Shown piece after piece: positions 22,414-49,913 of a stretch of DNA of 64,000 bases. The notes beneath the pieces are model-generated. The model saw nothing but the letters and a program-made list of their open reading frames with translations, did no database searches and was not told the origin of the DNA. Both the position numbers and the translations under genes were made by a program. The DNA is from Trypanosoma brucei (taxonomy: Eukaryota), in NCBI GenBank assembly GCA_000002445.1, contig CP000069.1, positions 960,001-1,024,000 of the forward strand. Direction: 5' to 3'. Every line of letters starts with the position of its first letter. Within the stretch, counting starts at the first letter, position 1.

Positions 22414-24009
22414 ATGCTCTTGGGATGCCGTCGGTTTGTCACACACGCCGTCGGACAATCTTTCCCCCACGTAACTTCTCCATTACGTGGTAAGCGGTTG
22501 CTGCGCTTGCGCCATGGCTGCCCTCGCGCTAAACCACTGCTCTCCGCCGAAGGGGATTTGCACACAACGCCGTTGGACCGTCCCCCGCCAACAGATATGC
22601 CACTCGCGTACTTGCAGGGGGAGATTTTGGATATGGAGAAGTATCGGACAGAAGAAGCTGTTTGGTCGAGAAACACAGTGCGGGAAGCATGGAATGCAAT
22701 TAACCACACACTGCACGATACGACCCCCGGCGTTGATGCAACGAAGAAGAAGGAGATAATTGAAAAAGACCTTGTAGGCTTGGCTCTCTGCACGTCATAT
22801 GCGGAAGTGAAGCACCTTCTTTCTCTGTTGACGCCCTCGCTTCGTTCACATATTGTTTCTCAGCCCTCCTATAAACAAACCGAGGTGGAGGAGTTTTTTC
22901 TCCATCTTGGACAAGACATCGAAGTGAGAGGTGCGGATTGGGTGATTCAGGTTCCGCCCCCGTCGGTGACCGATTTGCGTTATACCCTTGAGCGGGTGGG
23001 CCGATTTGGCGATGACGGCCGTGGGTGTATTGGACACACGCCGCATCGAGTAGCCGTGTGGCGCGGGCGGTTGGGGGAACCGTTAGGACTCACTATTCGT
23101 GTGGGACGTTATGTGCCGAATGTTGCCAGGGCATTGGTTCCTCTTGCGCGACGAGGTAGTGTTTTGATACTCTCCAAGGCGGGTATGGGAAAGACCACAA
23201 TCCTGAGAGACCTCGCTGCTTCCCTCTCTCGTGATCCGGCGAAACCCCGCGTTATGGTCGTTGATACCTCGAACGAAATTGGAGGTGATAGCCCGATGCC
23301 GCTGCCTTTTCTAGGGCGTTGTCGCCGTATCCAGGTCCCGCGTCGCGAGGAGCAACAAGAAGTAATGAAACAAATTCTTCAAAACCACTCACCGGAGTAC
23401 GTAATTGTTGATGAGGTTTCCACTACCGCCGAAGCAGAAGTAACGTGGTCCATTTCCCAACGGGGAGTTCATCTCGTTGCCACATGCCATGGCGAAAGTT
23501 TAGCGGGGTTATTGCAAAACCAGTCACTGAACTTGTTGGTGGGAGGCACCGCGCATGCATTTCTTAGTAACGAGGAGCGGCGGTTACGGAACAAGATCAA
23601 GAAAACTATCCTCGAGAGGCCGCATTCATCACCGTTTAAGTTTGTTGTGGAACTCCATTCACGGAAATTCGCTCATCTTTATGTGGATGTAAACCAGGCT
23701 GTTGATTGTCTTTTGGACCAGGGGGATGCGAGACGAAGTGCACGGATTGGGAAAACAATTGCCATTGATGAGCCACTGCCAGATGAGGTGATGGGTTTAG
23801 TTATGTCTCAAGAAAAGGAAGGTTCATATGCAAGAGAGCCGTCACACGAATCGTGGAGTGAGTGCAACGATGATGACAGTTGCGCCCTCGCCGGGCGGGA
23901 GGGGTGGCGGCCAAACAACCGGCCCGAGAGGCAGCGAGGGACTCGGTCGCATGGATGTCGAAAAAGATCAAATGACGACTTGTTGGACGAACTGAATAAC
24001 TTTAATTAA
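22414..24009 (+). CDS. SpoIIIAA / ycf45-like P-loop ATPase with a long N-terminal extension
   Basis: 531-aa ORF. The Walker A region GMGKTTILRDLAASLS, then VMVVDTSNEIGG, then Walker B-like YVIVDEVST and VHLVATCHGESLAGLL, follow the order and spacing of bacterial SpoIIIAA (GKTTLLRDLARQLS, VDERSEIAG, VLIVDEIG, VITTAHG). Confidence 0.55.
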   Translation: MLLGCRRFVTHAVGQSFPHVTSPLRGKRLLRLRHGCPRAKPLLSAEGDLHTTPLDRPPPTDMPLAYLQGEILDMEKYRTEEAVWSRNTVREAWNAINHTLHDTTPGVDATKKKEIIEKDLVGLALCTSYAEVKHLLSLLTPSLRSHIVSQPSYKQTEVEEFFLHLGQDIEVRGADWVIQVPPPSVTDLRYTLERVGRFGDDGRGCIGHTPHRVAVWRGRLGEPLGLTIRVGRYVPNVARALVPLARRGSVLILSKAGMGKTTILRDLAASLSRDPAKPRVMVVDTSNEIGGDSPMPLPFLGRCRRIQVPRREEQQEVMKQILQNHSPEYVIVDEVSTTAEAEVTWSISQRGVHLVATCHGESLAGLLQNQSLNLLVGGTAHAFLSNEERRLRNKIKKTILERPHSSPFKFVVELHSRKFAHLYVDVNQAVDCLLDQGDARRSARIGKTIAIDEPLPDEVMGLVMSQEKEGSYAREPSHESWSECNDDDSCALAGREGWRPNNRPERQRGTRSHGCRKRSNDDLLDELNNFN

Positions 24010-24344: not shown

Positions 24345-24836
24345 ATGATATCATTGCGGGGAAACATAGGTTTGCTTACCCGGCGGCGCCACGCCGTTAT
24401 CACTCTCCACTCTGCATTAGAGTTGTGTGGTGTCACACGTTACAAGAGTTCATTACCCAACAGCGCATTAACTGCTCGAACAGCGGAGGCCCTCTATTCC
24501 ATGGAACATTACCATAAGCAATGCCTCAATGAGGATGAGCGTCGGCAAGTCGAAGTGCAAGCTTGGGAAGAACTAATGAACCTTCCTGATGCTGCAGTGG
24601 AGGATGCGTCCTCAAGCGTTGTCGCCGACATTCTCGGTTCCTGGTGCTATTTTTCGAAATTTTGGGACCGAGGAATACAAGGCCCCAACCCATCAGACAG
24701 TCCTGAAGAAAACAACGTCAAAAAGGTCAATGTTCCTCTAATCGCAAGGGAATTCCACCGACCCCATTCCCCATCAACAGTTGACACGGCACCACCACCC
24801 CGCGCGAATCCACTAGATGAAGTGCTGGACTTTTGA
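24345..24836 (+). CDS. Hypothetical small protein (163 aa), the last ORF of the plus-strand array
   Basis: ORF only. No motifs recognised. The start codon is uncertain. Confidence 0.3.
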   Translation: MISLRGNIGLLTRRRHAVITLHSALELCGVTRYKSSLPNSALTARTAEALYSMEHYHKQCLNEDERRQVEVQAWEELMNLPDAAVEDASSSVVADILGSWCYFSKFWDRGIQGPNPSDSPEENNVKKVNVPLIAREFHRPHSPSTVDTAPPPRANPLDEVLDF

Positions 24837-26999: not shown

Positions 27000-27150
27000 T
27001 GCGCAAGGAGACGGTACGTATGTGGCACAGAATCCGAGCACATTTGGATGATTGGTTACCGACTGGCTCCCAAGTGTCCCAACAGCCCCTCTTACTTGTT
27101 TGTTCTCGGGAGATCGGAAAATCCTGTGGTCGGGAGAATACAGCGATGTG
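27000..27150 (-). mobile_element. Degenerate ingi-related (DIRE-like) fragment on the minus strand. It is 5'-truncated inside the AP-endonuclease region and may extend further toward about 26.5 kb.
   Basis: The reverse complement of 27100-27150 reads cacatcgctgtattctcccgaccaca..., matching the internal ingi site catcgctgtattctcccgataccgaccaccatcaca at 27762 in copy 1. Downstream similarity (gagaacaaacaag against gagacgacacagac) decays quickly. Confidence 0.4.
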
Positions 27151-27376
27151 CCCTGACGATGCCAGCCACCTCAACGTGGTGTCAGAGTCCAGTACCCCGT
27201 CTCATCGGGGGAAGCCAAGAGCCAGCAGCGTTCCTTTCATGGGCAACACTGCTGTGCTCCGGCTACGGCATCATACAGCACAGGGATCAGCAGCGTCTTG
27301 CTGGGACACCGTTTTTCATTTGTCGGTCCATGGGCACGTGCCAGCGTGTCATCAGCAGTATATCATCCACACTAAG

Positions 27377-30300
27377 ATGCTGCTGTCCGGTGATGTGGAA
27401 GAGAATCCCGGCCCGTCGTTGCGCGGGATGCAGTGGAACTGCGCCGGGCTATCTCAAGGAAAGAGATTAGCATTAGCACGTCGGCATACATCCCACCAAA
27501 ACGCACATTCACGGCAAATGACTTAGATACGCTTCTGACGACCGACGGTGCCCAGCTCATCGGTGCAGACGCTAACGCACACGCGTTGGTATGGGATCGC
27601 GCGAGCCCACCAAATACCAAGGGTGAAACCCTCACACAGTGGTGCATTGACAACCAGCTTCTGGTCTGTAACACTGGTGAGTGCACCAGGTACGCCCGCC
27701 ACCACGTGAAGCCCACCCCTGATATGACGCTATCAAGGAATTTCACAGTGTCCAGGTGGACATCGCTGTATTCTCCCGATACCGACCACCATCACATATT
27801 TTTCGACGTTATTGTTGGAGACGACACAGACTCACTGAGCTGCCCGCGGCTTTGAAAACCCATGTACGCATAGCTAAAAGCTGACTGGAGGAATTTCCGT
27901 CTCAAGGTTGACGAGTTCTGCAGAAAAATTGGTAGAGAATAACGTCAACACCCTGAAACAGAAATTGAGCTCCGCCATCCGCATTGCGACGAAGGTCTCC
28001 GTTCCCCGTGGCTGCAGAGCAACGCCACCACATGGGACACCTGCGCTCGCGAAACTCGATGAAGAGATCGCTGGATACGGACCCTCTCACCGAAGGGAAA
28101 AGTTGGTAGCCACGCGTAAGCAGATCCTGGACCGCACCACAAAGAAGAGATGGAGCACGCTATGCTCCAGACTTGCGGTGTCAGACCGCTGCAGTTGGCA
28201 CATTGTCAAGAAAGTATACGCGCCACGACCACTAACCACACCGGCTGTACTTGTTGATAACGCGGCCATCACGGACTACCGTCAAGCTGAGAGGTTCAGT
28301 AAACTGTACTCATCCCGCGCAAGAAGGCACCCCGACTCACACCCACCGGCACCCATAAAGACGATAGCGAGTGAGTTTAGTCTCATCACGATAGCTGAAC
28401 TACGGAGATCGATCAAACTGCTACCGAGTGGATCCGCAGCCGGACCTGATTGCTTATACAACGAGGCATTACAACATCTCGGTAGAGCAGCGCTGAATGT
28501 TGTGCTGAGGCTATTCAATGAGAGCCTACGAATGGGAGCCGTGCCGTCTGCATGGAAGACCGGTGTTATCATCCCCATCCTGAAGGCCAGAAAAAAGGAA
28601 GAGTACCCCGAATCTTACAGGCCTGTGACGCTCACGAGCTGTCTCTGCAAAGTCATGGAGCGCATAATTGCCGCAAGGTTTAGAGACACTGTTGAGTCCC
28701 AGCTGACGCCGCAGCAATCAGGCTTTCGCCCCGGATGCTCACCGCTCGAACAACTCCTGCACGTCTGCGCTGCCCTCTGCCGTCCCACGCACCAATATCG
28801 TACAGGTGCTGTATTCGTTGACTACGAGAAGGCATTTGACACAGTAGACCACGACAAAATTGCGGGGGAAATGCACAGAATGAAGGTATCACCCCACATT
28901 GTGAAGTGGTGCGTATCATTTCTGAGTAACCGAACTGGTAGAGTGAGATTCAAGGAGAAACTTTCCAGAAGCAGAACATTTGAGCGAGGAGTGCCACAAG
29001 GAACTCTCCTTGGCCCAATCATGTTCATAATTGTCATGAACTCGTTGAGCCAACGCCTTGCAGAAGTGCCGTTGCTGCAGCACGGATTCTTTGCAGACGA
29101 CCTGACGCTACTTGCGAGGCACACAGAGGGATGTCATCAACCAGACGCTACAATGCGGCCTAAACGTGGTGTTACAGTGGTCAAAAGAGTACTTCATGTC
29201 TATCAATGTAGCGAAAACAAAGTTCACACTCTTCGGGTTCACAGAGCGCCACCCCCTTACATTACAACTGGAAGGCGAAAGAATAGGAGCTGACAGGACA
29301 CCGAAGCTTCTAGGAGTAACATTCCAGTGTCTGCAAGGGATGGCAACACATGCGGCCGAAACGAGACGCAAGATGGACTTCCGACTACTGCAGATAACAG
29401 TCATCTCAGCTTCTATATGGGGGCCAATACGACAAGTGCTGAGAGCTTTTTATCTAGCACTCGTACAGGCACGCACCATGTGTGGCATTGAGGTATGGTA
29501 CTGGGACGCTTCGGAACGAAGTCGCGACCTCCTTGCAGCAGCACAACACAAAGCCAGTCGAATCATAGCTGGCATACCGCATGGGACGCGCGAAGAGGAC
29601 TCTCTGCTGGAAGCAAACCTCCTGCCACTCAAGACGACCACTCTTGTGCGCAGCATGAAATTCATGCTGATGTGTGAGTCACGAGGCGGATGTTTGCGGC
29701 GCAGTGCTGAGGAAGTATACCACAGCAAACACCCAGTCAGAGCCCTACACTCCCGCATCATGCGGTCCTACCCCCACCTCCGCATTGAGCCACGCGAGCA
29801 CCCACTAGAGACATCGACGCTCCGCCACAGCTGCCGACCGATATTTCACACGCAGATAAAGCCTGTGTGCGCTGATGACCCTGACAATGTCAAAAGGGAG
29901 GCTTCCGAAAAGTGATTGCACGGCATTTTTCACGGAGGGGGAAGGAGCCACCGCGGCGAGTGCACTACGAATTGTGGACTGATGGATCCGTGCCCCTCGG
30001 TGAGAAGTCCGGATCAACTGCCCTGCTCTATAGAAACAACACGCTGATTTGTGCACCCGAGACCGGAGCAGGGGAACTTTCATGCAGTTACAGAGCGGAA
30101 TGCGTAGCATTAGAGATAGGACTGTAACGGCTGCTGAAATGGCTTCTGGCATACAGAAGCACACCGAGCAGGTTGTCCATCTTCTCTGACTCGCTGTCAA
30201 TGTTAACAGCACTGCAGACGGGCCCCCTATCCGTAACGGACCCAATTCTGAGACGACTATGGAGGCTTCTGCTTCAAGTTGAGAGAAGGAAGGTGCGTAT

Positions 30301-31883
30301 CCGACTGCAATTTGCGTCCGGCCATTGTGGCGTGAAACGGAATGAGGTTTGCGATGAAATGGCCAAAAAGGCCGCTGATTTACCACAGTTGCGAGACGCA
30401 TGGATCCCCGACATCATTGCTTATGCGAAGCGAGTGCTTAGGTCGGAAGAAGTCTATGAGAACACTCATAGGTTTGGTATCACGGGCAACCACTTTCCAA
30501 CAAAACATAAAGAAGAACTGACGGGGGAAGAAGAAACGGCACTGGCACGCTTTCGGGTTGGAGTCTTCAAGATACTATGGATGGATGTTGCGAAAGATCA
30601 ACCCGAGTGTGCCTCCACAGTGCCGATGGTGCAACCCGCAACATGCAGCAATAGGGCCAACAATACAAACAGTCCCAACTGTTGCGACACGCACTCTTCA
30701 GAGAACCTCCGAACCAACTAAATGTACGGAATGTGATGCCACATACCAATACCTGTCGAATGCTGTAACGCACATGGTAAACAAACATGGCTTTGTGCGA
30801 GCTGATGCCCTCCGGAGGATCAAATACGGCGATGCAACACCCGCAGTGGACATCCTCCCGGAGCCCTCTCCAGTGGTGGCGATCGTTCCTCTACCATCGA
30901 GCATACGAGTCCTGATGAGACCGCAGGTGCTTTACTGTACCCTCTGTGCCTCCAAATTCGCAGTGCCAGGCCGACTATTACACCATCTTAGAACAATACA
31001 TGGCATAGGCAGCGGTAGTTGCCGCGTGAAAAGGGGGCGAGAGAGCGAGGACTCAGTGCAAGGAGATGGTAGCGTCCCAGCAGCCCCAGCCCCTCAGGAA
31101 ACACGGAAGCTGCCGTTTCAATGTGACCTGTGCGAGGCGAGCTTCAGTACACGTTCTTCCCTGTCACTACACAAGAAATTCAAGCATAAGAGCATAGTGA
31201 CGGAGGACGGTACCGTGGTGTTGGTGCAATTCCCTCGTAAGCGTGCCCGTGAGGGAAACGTTGACGTCCCGGGGAAAGGCGAGGTGCAGTGTGGTGTGTG
31301 TCAAAAAGTGCTCAGTTGCAGGGACTCCCTCATCCGACACTGTAAGGCTTTCCACAAAGGTGAGGGAGTCGAGCTTAAATGCAGCAAAAGCACAAAATTG
31401 CGTGCCACTGATTCCCCGCATACAAATGCATCCATGTTGGTGCGCCCGACATGCGGAAGGCAGTGTGCTAGCAAAACTGGCCTCACCCTACATCAAAAGA
31501 AGATGCACGGTATGAAGGTAGAGCGCGCTGTTACCAGCCAACGCGGCGACTGCGAAGAAACGTCGCTGCACCTGATGAGCTGTCCCAGTTTGAAGGAGTT
31601 ACGTGTCAGGCTTGCAGTAGAAGGTGAGTGTGTGCAGGATATATGTTTTTCCAAAAGGCTGGCGCAATTTCTCATTGCGGTTGAACGGAGCCGGCCGCAG
31701 GTGAAGTCCTCCCCCAATGTAACAGTCATACAACCCACTCTCCCTTCTGCAACTTCCCAGCTTATTGCCGAGTGTGGAGCTAGCAGGAAAAGCACCGGAC
31801 GCTGGAATAGTCCAGACACCCTCAGAGACAGAGGGGGTATGCAGTTAACAAGCAACAGAAACAGAAAGAGGGAGAGAGAATAA
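27377..31883 (+). pseudogene. ingi polyprotein ORF (APE-RT-RNase H-ZnF) disrupted by multiple frameshifts
   Basis: The ORF track shows successive fragments 26600-27526, 27433-27855, 27908-29293, 29112-29915, 30173-30721 and 30558-31883 in different frames. Together they reconstitute one retrotransposon polyprotein. Confidence 0.75.
27392..27415 (+). other. 2A-like co-translational ribosome-skipping motif (D-V-E-E-N-P-G-P) at the N-terminus of the ingi ORF
   Basis: The codons gat gtg gaa gag aat ccc ggc ccg encode ...MLLSGDVEENPGPSLRGMQWNCAGL... The motif lies about 12 codons upstream of the APE domain start (QWNCAGL) and conforms to the canonical D(V/I)ExNPGP. Confidence 0.8.
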
Positions 31884-33611
31884 TAAACAAATAACAAAAT
31901 TCAAAACAAAAGGATTGCTAATTGACATTTTTGTGAGAGTCCGGGGTGGGAGGCTTCTCGCCCCGTCTGCTGTATTCCGTTCAACTGCGGAGCTACAACA
32001 AAACGTTATAGAGAGGGTGTGTTAGGATGAATAATAAAGGGAGACTCTGCCACAGTCGCCAGACCGATAGCATCTCAGGGCTCTACGGTGATGGCTGATG
32101 GCCGTGCCAGTGGGGGGAAACTCTCACGAAGGCACGAAAAAAAAAATTTTTAAAGTCTATAGGCAAACCTCTACCCTGATATGGCTAATGTTATCCGCTA
32201 AGAGATTTTGTTCGTGTCAGTATAAGCAGATGTCTCATGCCACAAGAGAATTTACGTATGGTTTTTGCTGCAAACAAACCAAATGATATACTTAAGTTTA
32301 CGTGTTTTCTTTCTTATAATTGAAATAGATGACATTATTTTGTCCATCTTTTTTTCCTTTTCTACTGACCAATCGCCTTCCGTATTTCTCATCCTGATGT
32401 CGAATATTATTCCTGTTTCCTCATTTTTTATTTCAGTAAACAGCAATTTTGCACAGCTATCACTCGACAAAAAATATGTTAATAATCTGAATAGTAATGA
32501 TTATATTATTATAAGAGAACACATTCATGTACGCCACTACTTCTCCCAGTAACAACGATAATCATACATAACATTGTATGTGCGTGTTCACGCGTTTCTC
32601 GTACATTATCATTTCTTTTGTTGTAATGTCCCTGTTTGAGTCATCTCAATTGCGAGTTATTATAACTCTGGTTGTCCCTCCACTATCTTTGTTTGGGGGT
32701 GGTGGGGTGTGTTAATGCTCTTTGCATGTGGAGTGGGGATAGAGGAATAGGGCCCTGCTTATGTGAAGAGTGTGTGAAGTAAGGATGATGAGAGTTACTT
32801 ATAAGGTGTGTAATTATTTTGCGTGTGGAAAATGGTCTAAATGAGGGTGCTGAGAGGGAAGGTCTCTAATTATTCTGGGACTGTTTTGTGTGCTAGCAAC
32901 TAACATAATATTCCATCATGCCAACGTATAATGAAAGGTTTCATTAATAAGCTTAATTTTCTGAGATGGTGTTTTGAAACCCCAATTGTTACCTTTACTA
33001 GTGTGTTGTTTAGGAAAATGGAACGCAAGAAGCTGTGTATACATATAGAGAGGGAAAGAAAGAGTATTTCCAGTACGCGTATGAAAGGAAGAGGATATGC
33101 TGAATAGGGCTCAGTAGCAGAGTTGTGTTCATTGGACAAGGGTAACACGTGCGTGCAAATTAGGCACGTGATGTGCCAGCGAATTAAGCTATTAAAGTAG
33201 CAACTGGAGCCAATGGAGGACTTGGAAAAATAGCATAACGTGAAGGTGCAAGTACTCATGAGGAGAATGGATAAGCTTGTTATTGATGGAAGGTGCAGCG
33301 CAGCTCAGTTGGAGGTGCGGTTACTTGGCATGATGGTTAGTGAAGTTTTTTTTTTTTGAATCAAGAAGTTAGGGAAAATGGGGTAACCAACAGGAAAACA
33401 CCTGTGAGGGAACTCAATGTTGATATACGGCTTGAGGGGAGGGTTCCATACAACTCTGTGTGCTTTGGGATGTGCTTCCTCTTTTGTTGAATGCTGCTGT
33501 AGTTGGTTTGTGTCAGGCACTTATTAATTTCGATATTTTTATGTGTCTGTTTGTTGTGTCTGTCAATAACAACAACAATTGTTATGACAAGCTTTAGTTT
33601 TCTCCTCCTTT

Positions 33612-35019
33612 TTGGCTGATGAACGTATAGGCAAAATCACGATGAGGCACGAAGCAGTGTTTGCCATTGGGATGCTTGCGGCTGTTTTATCTCCTTCCTC
33701 TCAGGGTGATTTGAATTCTTTCAAATGGAGGACTGAGATGTTTGACTGGAGCCAGTTTGCGGATGATGTGGATGAAAAAGAAAGGCACCACAACTTTGGA
33801 GAGTTCGAGACACTGCAAGATTTACAGAATTACGCAGGCAGAGGCCCCACAGCCTTCCTTCAAGAATCGTGAAAAGGAAGGAGAGATTCTGAAGAATTTG
33901 GAGGAAATGGTCAGTGAGGCAGAAGCTGTTGGTGGCAATAAGGGCTCGAACAATTCATCTAACAGCACGACAGCATATCAGGAGATGAAGAAACTATTTG
34001 AGAAGGCGAAAAAGCTTAAGGAGCAGATAGAGGTGAATAGGACAAAAGCCTTGAATGCAAGTCGCTCTGCTGAAGAAAATATGTTGAAAGCTGTGTATGG
34101 CGATGCTGTGGATGTGGCAAGAAACGAGAATAAAACTCTGGAGGAAGCCATGAGAGGAAACAAATCACTGCTGTTCAATAGTGTCTACAATGCAGACACG
34201 AGCTGCGGTTCTTTTGGAGACAAGTTAGTCGGAAAGACTCTAATTAATGACTTTTTCTGCCTATGTGTGGGAGAGGCTGTTGATTTAATTAAGAAGTTCG
34301 AAAAGCCAAATAATCATGTATATAAATTAGATGTTCCCGATAGCGATGATAACAATATATATAATGGGTTAAATTGTCCTTGTAAGGATGAAATAAGGAG
34401 ACCTAAAAATGGTAGTTGGACTATGATGGCTGCACATTGTAAAGGTGACAGCAGCAAGTGCAACCCCGACAATATAAGATACAACCATACTGAGGCATGG
34501 GATGTGATTAGTAGAGCTTGCGTGTACAAGAATATTGCATCTAATGTGAAAACCCTAAAGAGTGCATTAGCTCAGTTTGATGCGTTAGTGAATTTGGAAC
34601 AGGGCGGACATCAGGTGAAAGGTATTCTTGGTTATGTGAAAACATTAAACAACGAAAATCGCACATGCACAGGTCACACTGCTGGGTTTACATGCGTCAG
34701 TTACAACTACACACTTAAAAATGGTGGAATTCCATGGTACAACCGCCTCACTAACGCCACCAAGGAACTACAAGAAATGGCGAAGTATGCCAAAGAGGCT
34801 GACAGCCATCTTCATGAGTTGGAAGAATTCCAACATGAGGCAGAGGAAATATTTCTTGAAGTGAAGCTAGGTGGTGATGCAGAGCTATGGAAGAGTAGCC
34901 GAGGTAGGGATGATGGTGAAAGTGGCAATGCTGAAGTAAATAATAATGGATTCAACTATATAGATATAACAACTGATATTTTTACATTAATGATTCTATA
35001 TCTTTTTTGTATATTTTAG
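33612..35019 (+). pseudogene. VSG-like / VSG-related surface glycoprotein pseudogene, split by a frameshift between the signal peptide and the body
   Basis: ORF 33612-33872 provides a signal peptide (MRHEAVFAIGMLAAVLSPSSQG). The frame-shifted ORF 33742-35019 encodes a K/E-rich helical N-terminal region and a Cys-patterned middle (CLCVGE, NCPCKDE, AAHCKGDSSKCNPD, RTCTGHTAGFTCVSY). It ends in a short hydrophobic tail (DIFTLMILYLFCIF) like a GPI-addition signal. The two ORFs overlap in different frames. Confidence 0.45.
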
Positions 35020-35249
35020 TTTATTGGTACGTTACCAACATTGTTGTGTAGTGTTTCGATTCTTTATTGTTTTTATTTGGATGCGTTCTTTCTTTTTTTT
35101 TCGAGCCTGACGGTATGTGAGTTTAAAATAATTGCATTTGAATTTTTTTTTCTTTCCTTTGAATGAATAATCAATGTGGTATCACTTTTTCTTTTGTTGG
35201 AATGTGTGTCTTGTCGTTTTTTTTGCTGTTATCAAGATAGCAGCATTTT

Positions 35250-37255
35250 TTTTTTTTGAAAGCTCGCTGTCGATGCTACGACATCTTATGGGAGCTGAAA
35301 CTTTATGTAACTTTTTTTTATTGTGTATCATGCTGCGTTGTCAGTGTACTATTAGCTTGTTACTATCTGTGTCGGATAAAGCTATATTTGTCTTGTTAAT
35401 GACTTTTATAGGTTGGGTCGGAACTAGTTGTAAAAGACAAGTAGGCGTTACTGAAATTTTAATTTTCAACCATTCGCTATGGCTGTAAAAGCGTACTTGC
35501 GAGTGAAAGGCTTCTGCCTCTTTTTTTTTTTTTTGAGCCAAACGTAGAAGAGCATAGTGGAGTTTACAATTTTCATTCAGAGGAGTGGGCAGCTTTTTGT
35601 GTAGTCTATTCTCCTTTATAGGGGTGTTCCTCTCGAATGAAGAAAGTACATGTTGGAAGAGAATGAGGGGTTTCTCAATTTCTAGGAGGAATTGTGCAAG
35701 GTTCTTGGTGAACACTATCTTCTGCATATTTTTGCCCTCAAGCCCGAAGTAACTGCGGAGCACTTTAGGCTTGAGCGCGCGAGTATGTGGGTGGGATTCT
35801 CTTCGCATTCGTTGGAGTGTGTATGTTTCCTTTCAACGCAGATTTCATGTTTTTGATGGCGATGTATAGATGAGCCTGATGTTGATTGGGACGTCTTATT
35901 TCGGTTTACGAACGTGAAGTGTAGATGAAACCCTCTGACGTTGAAGCTCCGGAGCGGTGGTGGAGATTCTTTTGCTACGGAGAAGGGATGCTGTCTATGC
36001 ATTCCCCCGAAGTGCTCCATCAGGCTGTCTTTTGATACATGCGTATGACGGCATTGCGTGCAACAGGTGTCATTTAGACCTATAGTTACCGTGTTCCAAA
36101 TGAGGGATACCTCTTGTTCTGTGATGGAACGGCTCCGTTTTGTACCAGCGTTACTATCCAGGGGATGGCCTCTGCGGTGTTGAATCTTGGTGCTTGGTGT
36201 TGTTCCCCCTTTTGATTGTGATACAAAGCTGCATTGCCTGCATTGTAGCGGCTCAGATGTGCCTACTGGGTCGTGCACTGGATGCCCTCTCGTTTCCGTC
36301 GCTCGGGAGCCCTTTGTTGGAATACTTGCATTCTCTTCGAGTTCCCATTGCCTTTTTATTCCTCGCGACCCCGTTTGCGGTTGTACTTCGCAGTATTTCA
36401 TCCCGTGACTTATCACTAGTCCAATTTACGTGTGAAATATATAGCTGCGAGGTCCATATATCGCTTCATTTTCTCCAGAGGTTGAACTGGTGGTGTTATC
36501 ACTTTGTTCATTGGTGTTGGGTTGATGCGGTCGGTTTTCACTTTGTGTGCCTATCCGTTTCTCCACCACTGGAATGATGTGCTAAAGCTGACCTCTGCTC
36601 TTTATTCCATGACGCATTGTCGAGTCTCTCTGCTCAATCAATTTGAACCCACAGATTCCTCACTGGAGTGTGTTTTTTATCATATTCAGTGTGGATTATG
36701 GTTCCGCCAGTGTGGGGTGGAAAGGGACTGCCGTTGGTCATGTAGTGTTTCTGTGGCCTGCGCAATGTTAGTACACCTGCGCTCTTGGATTGAAAAAGCC
36801 ACGTTCTGCGCAAACCCATTTGTGCTGTTTGATATTTTCATCTTCTTTCCGCTTCTCCGACATTTCATCGTCTAACTTTCTCGTTTTGCCGTGAAGGCAT
36901 CGAGTTTTGTGCCATGTGAGCCCTCCTTTGTTTCCATAGGATTTGTTACAGACACTGAGCACATACGACTTCGGTGGAGGGGGCAGGGGTTATAAGGTGA
37001 ACATTCCACATCACCGAACAGCAGCATCTTAGTGTGGATGATATACTGCTGATGGCACGCTGGCACGTGCCCAGCGAACGACAAATGAAAAACGGTGTCC
37101 CAGCAAGACGCTGCTGATCCCTGTGTTGTATGATGCCGAGGCCGGAGCACAGCAGAGTTCCCCATGAAAGGAACGCTGCTGGCTCTTGGTTTCCCCCGAT
37201 GATGCGGGGTACTGGACTCTGGCACCACGTGGAGGTGGCCGGCATCGCCAGAGGG
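35250..37255 (-). mobile_element. Old degenerate ingi-related element (DIRE) on the minus strand with a large internal deletion. Its 5' Pr77/2A end lies at 37255 and its 3' T-rich end near 35250.
   Basis: The minus-strand ORF 36872-37258 encodes HLHVVPESSTPHHRGKPRASSVPFMGNSAVLRPRHHTTQGSAASCWDTVFHLS...MLLFGDVE, about 88 percent identical to copy 1 residues upstream of its 2A motif. The reverse complement of 37241-37255 is the Pr77 start (ccctctggcgatgcc). The region 36885-37000 is a weak reverse-complement match to the APE start. Minus ORFs 35715-36416 and 35341-35808 keep ingi C-terminal features (PLQCRQCSF..., CTQCRHTHVSKDSLMEHFGGMH, NLAQFLLEIEKP against KRLAQFLIAVERSRP). Poly(T) runs sit at about 35090-35260. 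Confidence 0.5.
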
Positions 37256-37402
37256 CATCGCTGTATTCTCCCGATACCGATCACCATCACATATTTTTCG
37301 ACGTTATCGTTGGAGACGACACAGACTCACTGAGCTGCCCGCGGCTTTGAAAACCCATGCACGCATAGCTAAAAGCTGACTGGAGGAATTTCCGTCTCAA
37401 GG

Positions 37403-39775
37403 TTGACGAGTTCTGCAGAAAAATTGGTAGAGAAGAATGTCAACACCCTGGAACAGAAATTGAGCTCCGCCATCCGCATTGCGACGAAGGTCTCCGTTCC
37501 CCGTGGCTGCAGAGCAACGCCACCACATTGGACACCTGCGCTCGCGAAACTCGATGAAGAGATCGCTGGATACGGACCCTCTCACCGAAGGGAAAAGTTG
37601 GTAGCCACGCGTAAGCAGATCCTGGACCGCACCACAAAGAAGAGATGGAGCACGCTATGCTCCAGACTTGCGGTGTCAGACCGCTGCAGTTGGCACATTG
37701 TCAAGAAAGTATACGCGCCACGACCACTAACCACACCGGCTGTACTTGTTGATAACGCGGCCATCACGGACTACCGTCAAGCTGAGAGGTTCAGTAAACT
37801 GTACTCATCCCGCGCAAGAAGGCACCCCGACTCACACCCACCGGCACACATAAAGACGATAGCGAGTGAGTTTAGTCTCATCACGATAGCTGAACTACGG
37901 AGATCGATCAAACTGCTACCGAGTGGATCCATAGCCGGACCTGATTGCTTATACAACGAGGCACTGCAACATCTCGGTAGAGCAGCGCTGAATGTTGTGC
38001 TGAGGCTATTCAATGAGAGCCTACGAATGGGAGCCGTGCCGTCTGCATGGAAGACCGGTGTTATCATCCCCATCCTGAAGGCCAGAAAAAAGGAAGAGTA
38101 CCCCGAATCTTACAGGCCTGTGACGCTCACGAGCTGTCTCTGCAAAGTCATGGAGCGCATAATTGCCGCAAGGTTTAGAGACACTGTTGAGTCCCAGCTG
38201 ACGCCGCAGCAATCAGGCTTTCGCCCCGGATGCTCACCGCTCGAACAACTCCTGCACGTCTGCGCTGCCCTCTGCCGTCCCACGCACCAATATCGTACAG
38301 GTGCTGTATTCGTTGACTACGAGAAGGCATTTGACACAGTAGACCACGACAAAATTGCGGGGGAAATGCACAGAATGAAGGTATCACCCCACATTGTGAA
38401 GTGGTGCGTATCATTTCTGAGTAACCGAACTGGTAGAGTGAGATTCAAGGAGAAGCTTTCCAGAAGCAGAACATTTGAGCGAGGAGTGCCACAAGGAACT
38501 GTCCTTGGCCCAATCATGTTCATTATTGTCATGAACTCGTTGAGCCAACGCCTTGCAGAAGTGCCGTTGCTGCAGCACGGATTCTTTGCAGACGACCTGA
38601 CGCTACTTGCGAGACACACAGAGAGGGATGTCATCAACCAGACGCTACAATGCGGCCTAAACGTGGTGTTACAGTGGTCAAAAGAGTACTTCATGTCTAT
38701 CAATGTAGCGAAAACAAAGTTCACACTCTTCGGGTGTATAGGGCGCCACCCCCTTACATTGCAACTGGACGGCGAAAGGATAGGAGCTGACAGGACACCG
38801 AAGCTTTTAGGAGTAACATTCCAGTGTCTGCAAGGGATGGCAACACATGCGACCGAAACGAGACGCAAGATGGACTTCCGACTACTGCAGATAACAGTCA
38901 TCTCAGCTTCTATATGGGGGCCAATACGACAAGTGCTGAGAGCTTTTTATCTAGCACTCGTACAGGCACGCACCATGTGTGGCATTGAGGTATGGTACTG
39001 GGACGCTTCGGAACGAAGTCGCGACCTCCTTGCAGCAGCACAACACAAAGCCAGTCGAATCATAGCTGGCATACCGCATGGGACGCGCAAAGAGGACTCT
39101 CTGCTGGAAGCAAACCTCCTGCCACTCAAGACGACCACTCTTGTGCGCAGCATGAAATTCATGCTGATGTGTGAGTCACGAGGCGGATGTTTGCGGCGCA
39201 GTGCTGAGGAAGTATACCACAGCAAACATCCAGTCAGAGCCCTACATTCCCGCATCATGCGGTCCTACCCCCACCTCCGCATTGAGCCACGCGAGCACCC
39301 ACTAGAGACATCGACGCTCCGCCACAGCTGCCGACCGATATTTCACACGCAGATAAAGCCTGTGTGCGCTGATGACCCTGACGATGTCAAAAGGGAGGCT
39401 CCCGAAAAGTGGATTGAACGGCATTTTGCACGGAGGGGGAAGGAGCCACCGCGACGAGAGCACTACGAATTGTGGACTGATGGATCCGTGCCCCTCGGTG
39501 AGAAGTCCGGATCAACTGCCCTGCTCTATAGAAACAACACGCTGATTTGTGCACCCAAGACCGGAGCAGGGGAACTCTCATGCAGTTACAGAGCGGAATG
39601 CGTAACATTAGAGATAGGACTGCAACGGCTGCTGAAATGGCTTCCGGCATACAGAAGCACATCGAGCAGGTTGTCCATCTTCTCTGACTCGCTGTCAATG
39701 TTAACAGCACTGCAGACAGGCCCCCTAGCCGTAACGGACCCAATTCTGAGACGACTATGGAGGCTTCTGCTTTAA
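37403..39775 (+). pseudogene. ingi copy 2 RT-RNase H ORF (790 aa), terminated by a premature stop shared with copy 3
   Basis: RT motifs (FFADD) and RNase H (ELWTDGSVPLGEKSGSTALLY). The ORF ends ...RRLWRLLL at a TAA where copy 1 has CAA (Q). Confidence 0.8.
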
Positions 39776-40055
39776 GTTCAGAGAAGGAAGGTGCGTATCC
39801 GACTGCAATTTGCGTCCGGCCATTGTGGCGTGAAACGGAATGAGGTTTTCGATGAAATGGCCAAAAAGGCCGCTGATTTACCACAGTTGCGAGACGCATG
39901 GATCCCCGACATCATTGCTTATGCGAAGCGAGTGCTTAGGTCGGAAGAAGTCCATGAGAACACTCATAGGTTTGGTATCACCTGCAACCACTTTCCAACA
40001 AAACATAAAGAAGAACTGACGAGGGAAGAGGAAACGGCACTGGCACGCTTTCGGG

Positions 40056-41519
40056 TTGGAGTCTTCAAGATACTATGGATGGATGTTGCGAAAGATCAAC
40101 CCGAGTGTGCCTCCACAGTGCCGATGGTGCAACCCGCAACATGCAGCAATAGGGCCAACAATACAAACAGTCCCAACTGTTGCGACACGCACTCTTCAGA
40201 GAACCTCCGAACCAACCAAATGTACGGAATGTGATGCCACATACCAATACCTGTCGAATGCTGTAACGCACATGGTAAACAAACATGGCTTTGTGCGAGC
40301 TGATGCCCTCCGGAGGATCAAATACGGCGATGCAACACCCGCAGTGGACATCCTCCCGGAGACCCCTCCAGTGGTGGCGATCGTTTCTTTACCATCGAGC
40401 ATACGAGTCCTGATGAGACCGCAGGTGCTTTACTGTACCCTCTGTGCCTCCAAATTCGCAGTGCCAGGCCGACTATTACACCATCTTAGAACAATACATG
40501 GCATAGGCAGCGGTAGTTGCCGCGTGAAAAGGGGGCGAGAGAGCGAGGACTCAGTGCAAGGAGATGGTAGCGTCCCAGCAGCCCCAGCCCCTCAGGAAAC
40601 ACGGAAGCTGCCGTTTCAATGTGACCTGTGCGAGGCGAGCTTCAGTACACGTTCTTCCCTGTCACTACACAAGAAATTCAAGCATAAGAGCATAGTGACG
40701 GAGGACGGTACCGTGGTGGTGTTGCAATTCCCTCGTAAGCGTGCTCGTGAGGGAAACGTTGACGTGCCGGGGAAAGGCGAGGTGCAGTGTGGTGTGTGTC
40801 CAAAAGTGCTCAGTTGCAGTGACTCCCTCATCCGACACTGTAAGGCTTTCCACAAAGGTGAGGGAGTCGAGCTTAAATGCAGCAAAAGCACAAAATTGCG
40901 TGCCACTGATTCCCCGCATACAAATGCATCCATGTTGGTGCGCCCGACATGCGGAAGGCAGTGTGCTAGCAAAACTGGCCTCACCCTACATCAAAAGAAG
41001 ATGCACGGTATGAAGGTAGAGCGCGCTGTTACCAGCCAACGCGGCGACTGCGAAGAAACGTCGCTGCACCTGATGAGCTGTCCCGGTTTGAAGGAGTTAC
41101 GTGTCAGGTTTGCGGTAGAAGGTGAGTGTGTGCAGGATATATGTTTTTCCAAAAGGCTGGCGCAATTTCTCATTGCGGTTGAACGGAGCCGGCCGCAGGT
41201 GAAGTCCTCACCTAATGTAACAGTCATACAACCCACTCTCCCTTCTGCAACTTCCCAGCTTATTGCTGAGAGTGGAGCTAGCAGGAAAAGCACCGGACGC
41301 AGGAATAGTCCAGACACCCTCAGAGAGGGGGTATGCAGTCAACAAGCAACAGAAACAGAAAGAGGGGGAGAGAATAATAAACAAAGAACAAAATTCAAAA
41401 CAAAAGGATTGCTAATTGACATTTTTGTGAGAGTCCGGGGTGGGAGGCTTCTCGCCCCATCTGCTGTATTCCGTTTAACTGCGGAACTACAACAAAACGT
41501 TATAGAGAGGGTGTGTTAG
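40056..41519 (+). pseudogene. ingi copy 2 C-terminal C2H2 zinc-finger ORF (487 aa)
   Basis: Multiple C2H2 fingers (CTECDATYQYLSNAVTHMVNKHGF, CTLCASKFAVPGRLLHHLRTIHG, CDLCEASFSTRSSLSLHKKFKHK, CGVCPKVLSCSDSLIRHCKAFH). It is frameshifted relative to the upstream ORF. Confidence 0.75.
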
Positions 41520-41568: not shown

Positions 41569-42750
41569 TCAGGGCTCTACGGTGATGGCTGATGGCCGTG
41601 CCAGTGGGGGGAAACTCTCACGAAGGCACGAAGAAAATTCCAAAAAAAAAAAAATAGAGAAGCATATATCCTGCACACACTCACCTTCTACCGCAAACCT
41701 GACACGTAACTCCTTCAAACCGGGACAGCTCATCAAGTGCAGCGACGTTTCTTCGCAGTCGCCGCGTTGGCTGGTAACAGCGCGCTCTACCTTCATACCT
41801 TGCATCTTCTTTTGATGTAGGGTGAGGCCAGTTTTGCTAGCACACTGCCTTCCGCATGTCGGGCACACCAACATGGATGTGTTTGTATGCGGGGAATCAG
41901 TGGCACACAATTTTGTGTTTTTGCTGCATTTAAGCTCGACTCCCTCACCTTTGTGGAAAGCCTTACAGTGTCGGATGAGGGAGTCCCTGCAACTGAGCAC
42001 TTTTTGGCACACACCACACTGCACCTCGCCCTTCCCCGGGACGTCAACGTTTCCCTCACGGGCACGCTTACGAGGGAATTGCACCAACACCACGGTACCG
42101 TCCTCCGTCACTATGCTCTTATGCTTGAATTTCTTGTGTAGTGACAGGGAAGAACGTGTACTGAAGCTCGCCTCGCACAGGTCACATTGAAACGGCAGCT
42201 TCCGTGTTTCCTGAGGGGCTGGGGCTGCTGGGACGCTACCATCTCCTTGCACTGAGTCTTCGTTCTCTCTCCAACTTTTCACGCGGCAACTACCGCTACC
42301 TATGCCATGTATCGTTTGAAGGTGGTGTAATAGTCGGCCTGGCACTGCGAATTTGGAGGCACAGAGGGTACAGTAAAGCACCTGCGGTCTCATCAGGACT
42401 CGTATGCTCGATGGTAAAGAAACGATCGCCACCACTGGAGGGGGCTCCGGGAGGATGTCCACTGCGGGTGTTGCATCGCCGTATTTTATCTTTCGAAGGG
42501 CATCAGCTCGCACAAAGCCATGTTTGTTTACCATGTGCGTTACAGCATTCGACAGGTATTGGTATGTGGCATCACATTCCGTACATTTGGTTGGTTCGGA
42601 GGTTCTCTGAAGAGTGCGTGTCGCAACAGTTGGGACTGTTTGTATTGTTGGCCCTATTGCTGCATGTTGCGGGTTGCACCATCGGCACTGTGGAGGCACA
42701 CTCGGGTTGATCTTTCGCAACATCCATCCATAGTATCTTGAAGACTCCAA
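41569..42750 (-). pseudogene. ingi copy 3 C2H2 zinc-finger ORF, C-terminally truncated at the breakpoint
   Basis: It matches the copy 1 and copy 2 ZnF ORFs up to ...VQDICFS, then continues into unrelated sequence (the copy 2 poly(A) region read in reverse). Confidence 0.7.
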
Positions 42751-45662
42751 CCCGAAAGCGTGCCAGTGCCGTTTCCTCTTCCCTCGTCAGTTCTTCTTTA
42801 TGTTTTGTTGGAAAGTGGTTGCACGTGATACCAAACCTATGAGTGTTCTCATGGACTTCTTCCGACCTAAGCACTCGCTTCGCATAAGCAATGATGTCGG
42901 GGATCCATGCGTCTCGCAACTGTGGTAAATCAGCGGCCTTTTTGGCCATTTCATCGAAAACCTCATTCCGTTTCACGCCACAATGGCCGGACGCAAATTG
43001 CAGTCGGATACGCACCTTCCTTCTCTGAACTTAAAGCAGAAGCCTCCATAGTCGTCTCAGAATTGGGTCCGTTACGGCTAGGGGGCCTGTCTGCAGTGCT
43101 GTTAACATTGACAGCGAGTCAGAGAAGATGGACAACCTGCTCGATGTGCTTCTGTATGCCGGAAGCCATTTCAGCAGCCGTTGCAGTCCTATCTCTAATG
43201 TTACGCATTCCGCTCTGTAACTGCATGAGAGTTCCCCTGCTCCGGTCTTGGGTGCACAAATCAGCGTGTTGTTTCTATAGAGCAGGGCAGTTGATCCGGA
43301 CTTCTCACCGAGGGGCACGGATCCATCAGTCCACAATTCGTAGTGCTCTCGTCGCGGTGGCTCCTTCCCCCTCCGTGCAAAATGCCGTTCAATCCACTTT
43401 TCGGGAGCCTCCCTTTTGACATCGTCAGGGTCATCAGCGCACACAGGCTTTATCTGCGTGTGAAATATCGGTCGGCAGCTGTGGCGGAGCGTCGATGTCT
43501 CTAGTGGGTGCTCGCGTGGCTCAATGCGGAGGTGGGGGTAGGACCGCATGATGCGGGAATGTAGGGCTCTGACTGGATGTTTGCTGTGGTATACTTCCTC
43601 AGCACTGCGCCGCAAACATCCGCCTCGTGACTCACACATCAGCATGAATTTCATGCTGCGCACAAGAGTGGTCGTCTTGAGTGGCAGGAGGTTTGCTTCC
43701 AGCAGAGAGTCCTCTTTGCGCGTCCCATGCGGTATGCCAGCTATGATTCGACTGGCTTTGTGTTGTGCTGCTGCAAGGAGGTCGCGACTTCGTTCCGAAG
43801 CGTCCCAGTACCATACCTCAATGCCACACATGGTGCGTGCCTGTACGAGTGCTAGATAAAAAGCTCTCAGCACTTGTCGTATTGGCCCCCATATAGAAGC
43901 TGAGATGACTGTTATCTGCAGTAGTCGGAAGTCCATCTTGCGTCTCGTTTCGGTCGCATGTGTTGCCATCCCTTGCAGACACTGGAATGTTACTCCTAGA
44001 AGCTTCGGTGTCCTGTCAGCTCCTATCCTTTCGCCGTCCAGTTGCAATGTAAGGGGGTGGCGCCCTATACACCCGAAGAGTGTGAACTTTGTTTTCGCTA
44101 CATTGATAGACATGAAGTACTCTTTTGACCACTGTAACACCACGTTTAGGCCGCATTGTAGCGTCTGGTTGATGACATCCCTCTCTGTGTGTCTCGCAAG
44201 TAGCGTCAGGTCGTCTGCAAAGAATCCGTGCTGCAGCAACGGCACTTCTGCAAGGCGTTGGCTCAACGAGTTCATGACAATAATGAACATGATTGGGCCA
44301 AGGACAGTTCCTTGTGGCACTCCTCGCTCAAATGTTCTGCTTCTGGAAAGCTTCTCCTTGAATCTCACTCTACCAGTTCGGTTACTCAGAAATGATACGC
44401 ACCACTTCACAATGTGGGGTGATACCTTCATTCTGTGCATTTCCCCCGCAATTTTGTCGTGGTCTACTGTGTCAAATGCCTTCTCGTAGTCAACGAATAC
44501 AGCACCTGTACGATATTGGTGCGTGGGACGGCAGAGGGCAGCGCAGACGTGCAGGAGTTGTTCGAGCGGTGAGCATCCGGGGCGAAAGCCTGATTGCTGC
44601 GGCGTCAGCTGGGACTCAACAGTGTCTCTAAACCTTGCGGCAATTATGCGCTCCATGACTTTGCAGAGACAGCTCGTGAGCGTCACAGGCCTGTAAGAAT
44701 CGAGGTACTCTTCCTTTTTTCTGGCCTTCAGGATGGGGATGATAACACCGGTCTTCCATGCAGACGGCACGGCTCCCATTCGTAGGCTCTCATTGAATAG
44801 CCTCAGCACAACATTCAGCGCTGCTCTACCGAGATGTTGCAGTGCCTCGTTGTATAAGCAATCAGGTCCGGCTATGGATCCACTCGGTAGCAGTTTGATC
44901 GATCTCCGTAGTTCAGCTATCGTGATGAGACTAAACTCACTCGCTATCGTCTTTATGTGTGCCGGTGGGTGTGAGTCGGGGTGCCTTCTTGCGCGGGATG
45001 AGTACAGTTTACTGAACCTCTCAGCTTGACGGTAGTCCGTGATGGCCGCGTTATCAACAAGTACAGCCGGTGTGGTTAGTGGTCGTGGCGCGTATACTTT
45101 CTTGACAATGTGCCAACTGCAGCGGTCTGACACCGCAAGTCTGGAGCATAGCGTGCTCCATCTCTTCTTTGTGGTGCGGTCCAGGATCTGCTTACGCGTG
45201 GCTACCAACTTTTCCCTTCGGTGAGAGGGTCCGTATCCAGCGATCTCTTCATCGAGTTTCGCGAGCGCAGGTGTCCAATGTGGTGGCGTTGCTCTGCAGC
45301 CACGGGGAACGGAGACCTTCGTCGCAATGCGGATGGCGGAGCTCAATTTCTGTTTCAGGGTGTTGACATTCTTCTCTCTACCAATTTTCCTGCAGAGCTC
45401 GTCAACCTTGAGACGGAAATTCCTCCAGTCAGCTTTTAGCTATGCGTGCATGGGTTTTCAAAGCCGCGGGCAGCTCAGTGAGTCTGTGTCGTCTCCAACA
45501 ATAACGTCGAAAAATATGTGATGGTGGTCGGTATCGGGAGAATACAGCGATGTCCACCTGGACACTGTGAAATTCCTTGATAGCGTCATATCAGGGGTGG
45601 GCTCCACGTGGTGGCGCGCGTACCTGGTGCACTCACCAGTGTTACATACCAGAAGCTGGTTG
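41663..45662 (-). mobile_element. ingi copy 3 (minus strand), truncated at both ends. The 5' end lies in the APE domain at about 45662 and the 3' end at an internal site in the ZnF region at about 41663, so there is no 3' tail or poly(A).
   Basis: It is the reverse complement of copy 2 at about 98 percent identity and shares the same premature stop (...RRLWRLLL). The RT ORF is 43031-45346, followed by 42572-43015 and 41569-42750 on the minus strand. Homology to copy 2 stops at gatatatg (reverse complement of 41663-41670), whereas copy 2 continues there with tttttccaaaaggctggcg.... Confidence 0.85.
43031..45346 (-). pseudogene. ingi copy 3 RT-RNase H ORF (771 aa)
   Basis: Nearly identical to the copy 2 ORF. 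An extra GA near the 5' end (tagagagaagaatg against tagagaagaatg) shifts the first 19 codons out of frame. Confidence 0.8.
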
Positions 45663-48863: not shown

Positions 48864-49913
48864 TCAAACTTGCGTCAGCAGGACATCCTTGCAATAGTCC
48901 ACCTCAAAATCCTCGAGGTCCTGTAGGTTTAGCGTTAACGTCCACAACCCGTGTGCCTTTACGCTCCGCCCCTCGCTCACTGGTGCATTGGCTACACTAA
49001 GGGGATCCATGCATTTCGTAACGGCCCACTTACGCTCCAGGGACAATTCTTCTCGAAGCGATTCCTGCATGAGATTCACAATTATGCGCCCTACGGGAAC
49101 CACTTCCCATGTGTGGTCCACCTGTTTACGCCTTATCTTACAGACACGCTTCAGTGCGTCCGCCTCTTGCACCGCCCATGCCGCTAAATGTATGTGCCGT
49201 GGTCCTTCACACGTTCCAAACAGCATATAGTCAAAGTTGCTCGTTTTATTACTAACATCGATAGCGCAGATGTCCCGGACCTTAAGTGACCGCAAAACTT
49301 CTAGTATCTCCTTTACATCTTCTATATATGCCTTCCGCCCGTCCTGCCAAGTTTCGTCGAGGGATCCCTCAACTTCCATTTCCAACAACATGTCTGCAAA
49401 CCGCTCGTCATCGTATGGAAGTGGCTGTTTCGATCCCGTGCTTGTGGGTTGCTGAATCGTCTCCTCCAGAGTGTCACTAGCCAAAACGCGGAGGGCGCTG
49501 CGACTGTTCGTCCGCTGTTCCTCCTGGCGACTGGAAATTGGAATGTTAAGCCGGGAAAATACCTGACCCTCTGGAATATCGTTTTCCCTGACGACGCCGA
49601 GTTCTGAAGAATCCCCCACTTCTCGCCGCGCACTGGCTGATCCCAGCGCATTTGTAAGATCATCCAGTTGGAGATCAACAAAATCGCTCTCCCCGCCATT
49701 GGAGAGCGGCAGCGGCGGCGGAGTCCCATCATTCGTGAACGCATCACTTGAATGCCAGCGGGCAGCTTTCAGCGGCAGGTGACAACACAACCGATTTCGC
49801 ATCCTTCCACTTTCGCGAATCAACTCAAAACAGCACCAACGAAACGAAGGCGTAGTTTGAAATACACCACGCGCATAGCAGCCAGGTGTTGATTTGCTAA
49901 AAATTCGCCGCAT
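48864..49913 (-). CDS. Ribosomal silencing factor RsfS / iojap-like (DUF143) protein with a long N-terminal extension, likely organellar
   Basis: The C-terminal about 110 aa, ILEVLRSLKVRDICAIDVSNKTSNFDYMLFGTCEGPRHIHLAAWAVQE...VVPVGRIIVNLMQESLREELSLERKW, parallels E. coli RsfS ([45 protein letters not shown]...[20 protein letters not shown]). Confidence 0.65.
   Translation of the reverse strand: MRRIFSKSTPGCYARGVFQTTPSFRWCCFELIRESGRMRNRLCCHLPLKAARWHSSDAFTNDGTPPPLPLSNGGESDFVDLQLDDLTNALGSASARREVGDSSELGVVRENDIPEGQVFSRLNIPISSRQEEQRTNSRSALRVLASDTLEETIQQPTSTGSKQPLPYDDERFADMLLEMEVEGSLDETWQDGRKAYIEDVKEILEVLRSLKVRDICAIDVSNKTSNFDYMLFGTCEGPRHIHLAAWAVQEADALKRVCKIRRKQVDHTWEVVPVGRIIVNLMQESLREELSLERKWAVTKCMDPLSVANAPVSEGRSVKAHGLWTLTLNLQDLEDFEVDYCKDVLLTQV

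Follow-up and report, generated by a model that had tools for sequence, protein, structure and literature searches.

The glycoprotein ESAG2, whose function is not known, sits in the cell-body membrane through a GPI anchor (PMC4587319, PMC11298655). In Tb927, 18 ESAG2 copies lie outside the expression sites (PMC3605285, Table 2 and Discussion). Copies from expression sites (ES) and non-ES copies form two reciprocally monophyletic groups, the non-ES copies recombine often, with a significant PHI statistic, and ESAG2 has its closest outgroup among the (b-type) VSGs of T. congolense (PMC3605285). Chromosome-internal ESAG-like copies associated with retroelements at strand-switch regions have already been described as a pattern of the reference genome (PMC3605285), and the locus reported here adds one more; it is a feature of known kind in a well-studied genome. 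It lies in a 64,000-nt stretch of Trypanosoma brucei TREU927 chromosome 6 (hereafter the window), which very probably contains a chromosome-internal, GRESAG2-type pseudogene of the ESAG2 family, carrying a 2-bp deletion and embedded in a retroelement island at a convergent strand-switch region. ESAG2-related (GRESAG2) pseudogene would be the correct label for the locus, and not VSG or VR relic.

The closest described relatives are the chromosome-internal ESAG2-like or GRESAG2 genes, such as those of TREU927 chromosome 3 (protein P0001) and of the procyclin locus on chromosome 6 (P0008), to which the protein reconstructed here is colinear over its full length at 72-84% alignment identity. Lengths are similar (453-472 aa in the GRESAG2 genes, 459 aa here) and the signal peptide, the VSG_B domain, 11 conserved cysteines and the C-terminal hydrophobic tail are common to both, the tail here being almost the same as in P0001 and P0004, the latter from T. 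b. gambiense. Also as here, two T. b. gambiense loci (L002 and L003) are non-telomeric and placed beside a strand-switch region. The copy in the window differs from the GRESAG2 genes in a frameshifting 2-bp deletion after codon 57 and in its central variable segment (about residues 215-245), which is unique; unlike the procyclin-locus gene, it lies between ingi-type elements and outside the procyclin locus. ESAG2 sensu stricto, i.e. the telomeric bloodstream ES copies, which are taken to be proteins P0009-P0012, belongs to the same family and is built alike, the alignment identity being 67-69% (BLASTP 61-65%), but the N-terminal EEAVDDECTR... insertion of that clade is missing here and the copy in the window is not in an expression site. 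The features of the window are as follows.

13717-15009: GPI mannosyltransferase I, flanking gene with an exact protein match
27651-32143, plus strand: ingi-type non-LTR retroelement copy 1, with RVT_1 and C2H2 zinc-finger matches, 98% identical to copy 2 and 97.8% to copy 3
32159-35856, plus strand: duplicated ESAG2 'cassette', made up of the coding sequence together with its flanks (about 1.45 kb on the 5' side, about 0.84 kb on the 3' side)
33612-33872, plus strand: ORF A, 86 aa from a TTG, with its first ATG at 33642
33642-33707, plus strand: putative signal peptide MRHEAVFAIGMLAAVLSPSSQG, at the start of ORF A
33642-33813, plus strand: 5' part of the probable GRESAG2 pseudogene coding sequence in its original frame, from its alignment, as far as GEFETL, with 12 ESAG2/GRESAG2 N-termini
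33742-35019, plus strand: ORF B, 425 aa, overlapping ORF A in a different frame
between 33813 and 33814, plus strand: site of the putative inactivating 2-bp deletion, from DNA alignments with two paralogs
33814-35019, plus strand: remaining coding sequence in the shifted frame, from CKIYRITQAEAPQ..., with its stop codon at 35017-35019
35718-36401, minus strand: multi-copy ORF of 228 aa, 'hypothetical protein Tb927.6.3400', exact match to AAZ11899
37253-41637, plus strand: ingi copy 2, tail to tail with copy 3, completing the island
41657-45662, minus strand: ingi copy 3, tail to tail with copy 2, completing the island
48864-49913, minus strand: MALSU1, flanking gene with an exact protein match

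Of ten large flanking ORFs looked up by their exact sequence, nine are TREU927 chromosome 6 proteins within the run AAZ11887 to AAZ11904 and include, besides the two listed, a calpain-like peptidase and a ferric reductase. The plus-strand genes end at 24836 (AAZ11898) and the minus-strand genes begin at 47453 (AAZ11900), and the 22.6 kb between them therefore constitute a convergent strand-switch region, at which no tRNA genes were found. This interval holds, in order, a weak RHS_N fragment, ingi copy 1, the ESAG2 cassette, the minus-strand ORF at 35718-36401 and ingi copies 2 and 3. The ingi copy announced upstream of the gene in an earlier note on this DNA was recovered as an element with reverse transcriptase and C2H2 matches that ends at 32143 in a poly(A) run (about 32131-32143).

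The same note had described a signal-peptide ORF and a 425-aa body ORF overlapping in different frames, an arrangement borne out by ORFs A and B, both on the plus strand. Frame A tracks the family N-terminus as far as ...GEFETL, reading through ...HHNFGEFET(L) in the original frame over DNA that is alignable with the ESAG2 gene of T. b. gambiense chromosome 1, and then runs on to a stop codon at 33870-33872. Frame B resumes without loss at CKIYRITQAEAPQPSFKNREKEGEIL and continues to the C-terminal tail, and in the family alignment the frames switch exactly between GEFETL and CKIYRITQ. The DNA at this junction was compared with two T. b. gambiense DAL972 paralogs, L001 (chromosome 1, encoding P0002) and L002 (encoding P0004). 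The window reads GAGACAC--TGC where the paralogs read GAGACACTTTGC or GAGACACTGTGC, and over a longer span its GAGACAC is joined directly to TGCAAG, against GAGACACTTTGCAAG or GAGACACTGTGCAGG in the paralogs. Both paralogs have two extra bases at the junction and the lesion is therefore a 2-bp deletion, which replaces the single-nucleotide indel previously proposed near 33742-33872. The deletion-bearing form at 33813/33814 is GAGACACTGC and the paralog-like intact forms are CTTTGC or CTGTGC, in a short and T/G-rich context, C(TT/TG)TGC. The reading frame is shifted by +1 after codon 57, and no frame runs uninterrupted from signal peptide to GPI signal in the window sequence; inserting 2 nt after 33813 yields an uninterrupted ORF of 459 aa, for a family range of 453-489 aa.

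The protein features reported for the two ORFs were likewise recovered. The signal-peptide-like MRHEAVFAIGMLAAVLSPSSQG has a hydrophobic core with a mean Kyte-Doolittle value of 2.67, and the Lys/Glu-rich N-terminal half, the clustered cysteines and the GPI-signal-like tail pointed out earlier correspond, in the numbering of the repaired protein, to 12% Lys and 12% Glu in residues 59-200, with predicted long helices, to ten cysteines within residues 189-352 and to the hydrophobic C-terminal DIFTLMILYLFCIF (mean 2.3), encoded around 34969-35016. The coding sequence in the shifted frame (33814-35019) thus holds the VSG_B domain, the conserved cysteines and the tail. Both the signal peptide and the C-terminal tail, judged by alignment and hydropathy, align with their ESAG2/GRESAG2 counterparts.

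The family assignment was made with the joined protein of frames A and B as query in a search space of 5.8 billion proteins. It returned 17 homologs, the top 16 of which are named ESAG, ESAG2 or GRESAG2 and come without exception from the T. brucei group; the remaining one, the only VSG, is from T. congolense, at 27-29% identity, and none of the 17, judged by source names, is a VR or VSG-related T. brucei protein. The 12 full-length T. brucei members align colinearly over 97-100% of the query (E=3.7e-250 to 1.2e-183), the ESAG2/GRESAG2 matches showing 61-81% BLASTP identity over their full length. P0001, recorded as 'ESAG, putative', is the best of them (E=3.7e-250, 100% coverage, 81% BLASTP identity and 83.6% alignment identity). 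Together with the Pfam VSG_B match of the body (PF13206, E=6.9e-22), these homologies show that the two-ORF gene is not a product of chance. On these alignments the gene is best read as a member of the ESAG2/GRESAG2 family, and as neither a VSG nor a VR gene. Within the family, a neighbour-joining tree groups the repaired protein with P0001 (83.6%) and P0002 (79.9%), both encoded on large chromosome-sized records, and outside the tight clade of P0009-P0012. The position of the locus in the core of chromosome 6, between housekeeping genes, and its place in the tree outside that clade therefore indicate a GRESAG2-type copy and not ESAG2 sensu stricto.

The body of the gene nevertheless retains a VSG imprint. 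The ESAG2 family profile finds VSG615 as its sole match among PDB sequences (E=1.3e-8), and the AlphaFold2 prediction for the body, which shows long helices and is of middling quality (pLDDT 67.5, pTM 0.65), has its best Foldseek matches in the PDB exclusively among class-B VSGs (VSG615, mVSG1954, VSG3 and VSG11), weak as these are (E from 3.9e-3, TM 0.44-0.60); identity to solved VSGs is ~14-18%. The VSG_B domain and these fold matches fit the origin of ESAG2 from a b-type VSG, which is already known, and the earlier reading of the locus as a frameshifted surface-glycoprotein pseudogene with VSG ancestry holds to this extent. The predicted fold as such would fit shared ancestry and offers no evidence of VSG membership: the VSG_B domain and the long helical-bundle core, predicted here, are shared with the N-terminal domain of class B VSGs, but the copy in the window lies outside a VSG array and lacks the VSG C-terminal domain, the 3'UTR 16-mer and the 70-bp repeats. 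Pfam gave no match to a VSG C-terminal domain at E<=1, the C-terminus aligning with ESAG2 instead. The 16-mer TGATATATTTTAACAC, which we take to be the conserved VSG 3'UTR motif, was already noted as missing downstream and indeed has no match there at <=3 mismatches; the only match in the window, at 5809, is at chance level. A 70-bp-like element had also been claimed upstream of the gene, and this was not recovered: there is no upstream tandem repeat, positions 32000-37200 hold only a 22-nt AT-rich one, and two strings that we presume to represent the 70-bp-repeat core found no match. A bona fide VSG pseudogene or a VSG-related (VR) relic, for which the VSG_B domain, the class-B fold matches, the signal peptide and the GPI-type tail could be adduced, consequently has next to no probability in our judgement, against close homologs that are all ESAG2/GRESAG2 (full-length BLASTP identity 61-81%), a nearest VSG at 27%, and the three missing VSG hallmarks. 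Comparison with VSG domain profiles and ESAG families, as had been suggested, has in this way supported the view that this is 'not a bona fide VSG', by matching VSG_B and full-length ESAG2 and no VSG C-terminal domain; of the alternatives offered then, a VR relic or a diverged family member, it is the second that stands, with ESAG2/GRESAG2 as the family.

A more serious question is whether the gene is dead. Of the 215 positions at which the 12 full-length T. brucei homologs are invariant, 211 are retained in the repaired protein, with no loss among the 11 invariant cysteines; intact members miss 1-12 such positions in a leave-one-out control. Nei-Gojobori dN/dS is 0.27 against P0002 and 0.32 against P0004, and 0.33 between these two, both intact, with dS of about 0.4-0.5 in the P0002 and P0004 comparisons. 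Besides the single 2-bp deletion, then, the gene bears no mark of decay. A gene that is intact in reality, the deletion being a sequencing or assembly error or belonging to one haplotype of the diploid TREU927, and that encodes a functional GRESAG2 surface protein, would draw support from just these data, i.e. one lesion only, in a short T/G-rich context, near-complete retention of the invariant residues with all invariant cysteines, and a dN/dS indistinguishable from that of intact paralogs. Against it, there is no protein from the locus in a collection that includes its TREU927 neighbours, and no intact orthologue of >84% identity was found in the Trypanozoon assemblies searched; moreover, the reference chromosome is, as we take it, a finished clone-based sequence. 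This explanation is improbable in our view, and we place lower still, as very improbable, a split gene that remains in use, whether through ORF B started at the internal ATG 33763 (non-secreted), through a secreted 76-aa peptide of ORF A or through ribosomal frameshifting. Both ORFs are open, and a polypyrimidine tract with an AG just upstream of the ATG at 33642 makes a trans-spliced mRNA conceivable, but no sign of a slippery site or of a structure emerged, the function of the family needs ER entry and GPI addition, neither of which ORF B alone achieves, and neither product is in the protein collection. Looked up by exact sequence, ORF A and two versions of ORF B that begin at an ATG had no entry in that collection. 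GenBank protein numbering across the island runs AAZ11898, AAZ11899 (Tb927.6.3400), AAZ11900, with none for the pseudogene. Missing record and consecutive numbering fit a pseudogene or an absent CDS annotation, and a literature search on Tb927.6.3370 to Tb927.6.3400 retrieved nothing.

The explanation that we favour is a pseudogene of a family of GPI-anchored surface glycoproteins that descends from a b-type VSG. Through the 2-bp deletion after codon 57 the mature domain is cut off from its signal peptide. A ribosome starting at the ATG at 33642 would make 76 residues, namely the signal peptide, 35 native residues and 19 out-of-frame ones, and the 400-residue body would be left without a signal peptide of its own, so that presumably no surface protein can be made. 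Most likely the copy does nothing now, and at most it may serve as a passive partner for gene conversion within the family. Since its dN/dS equals that of intact paralogs, the inactivation is recent relative to the divergence from them. Either most of this divergence built up under constraint or gene conversion repeatedly refreshed the copy. Such a freshly inactivated copy, with one 2-bp deletion and constraint-like substitutions, is a handy marker for strain comparison or for studying gene conversion in the family.

Along the protein the best-matching paralog changes from P0002 to P0001, then to P0008/P0006 and finally to P0004/P0001, and dS against P0002 ranges from 0.24 to 0.94 between segments. 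Both observations are suggestive of mosaicism, in line with the PHI result for non-ES copies (PMC3605285). It is tempting to speculate, and we regard it as unlikely though worth stating, that the frameshifted copy acts as a silent donor or acceptor in a segmental gene conversion that diversifies GRESAG2/ESAG2, just as mosaic VSGs draw on VSG pseudogenes; lying next to ingi elements in a convergent strand-switch region, it would be well placed for such exchange.

The homology to other loci is not confined to the coding sequence. Positions 32159-35856 match L001:3549-7182 on T. b. gambiense DAL972 chromosome 1 by blastn at 76% identity over 3744 columns, and also match L002; both flanks are included in the homology, and coding sequence and flanks were therefore duplicated as a cassette. 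The copy in the window is part of this 3.7-kb cassette, duplicated between chromosome-internal loci and lying here next to Tb927.6.3400. On its left, the cassette directly follows the poly(A) run that closes ingi copy 1. A 3' transduction of the ESAG2 cassette by ingi was considered and rejected, since the 3' border (35856) lacks a poly(A) run and L001 continues upstream with unrelated sequence. As for the other T. b. gambiense loci, L002 (FN554966.1, 546295-563656) and L003 (FN554974.1, 3835211-3846578) carry chromosome-internal ESAG2 in small arrays of VSG_B-domain genes, each of which ends a plus-strand run where minus-strand housekeeping genes begin; L003 also holds VSG (Trypan_glycop) and ESAG1-like ORFs and resembles an expression-site relic.

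On T. b. gambiense DAL972 chromosome 6 the island has a counterpart whose left part, with ingi copy 1 in the same place, is conserved at 98.4% identity. This T. b. gambiense island, compared through L004 (738354-759073) and L010 (764262-785197), measures ~20 kb, against 22.6 kb in the window (24836-47453), and its interior and right side are rearranged, with differences in the orientation and completeness of the ingi elements, 2.3 kb that are unmatched and an N gap. No ESAG2 was found in the ~15.6 kb of this island that was sampled. In T. equiperdum, each edge of the island coincides with a contig break. To the left of the island, the plus-strand ORF at 22414-24009 has 531 aa in the window, in T. 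equiperdum (exact match) and in T. b. gambiense, and 470 aa in the TREU927 record AAZ11897, which is probably a difference in start-codon annotation.

Downstream of the pseudogene an inverted DIRE had been proposed. An inverted ORF is indeed present, Tb927.6.3400, with a colinear but weak similarity to the C-terminal zinc-finger region of ingi (24%, E=3e-6), which supports the proposal in part and weakly. The ORF belongs to a 90%-identity cluster of 21 members spread over many T. brucei-group chromosomes and looks like an ORF of a repeated element rather than a cellular gene; by these similarities it probably represents a piece of a degenerate ingi-related element, inverted downstream of the pseudogene. 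Ingi copies 2 and 3 form a 3.7-kb inverted repeat, the arms of which (37429-41149 and 41657-45377) are 99% complementary and separated by a 507-nt spacer; lying at a convergent strand-switch region, this pair might give rise to long hairpin or double-stranded RNA. Upstream of ingi copy 1 lies a 271-nt segment (27130-27400) that is repeated in inverted orientation, at 93% identity, just before ingi copy 2 (37004-37274), and that recurs at L001:621-866, beside ingi pieces in the T. b. gambiense chromosome 1 ESAG2 locus. An ORF over its first copy has a weak RHS_N match (E=4e-5), and the segment may be RHS or ingi 5'-end sequence.
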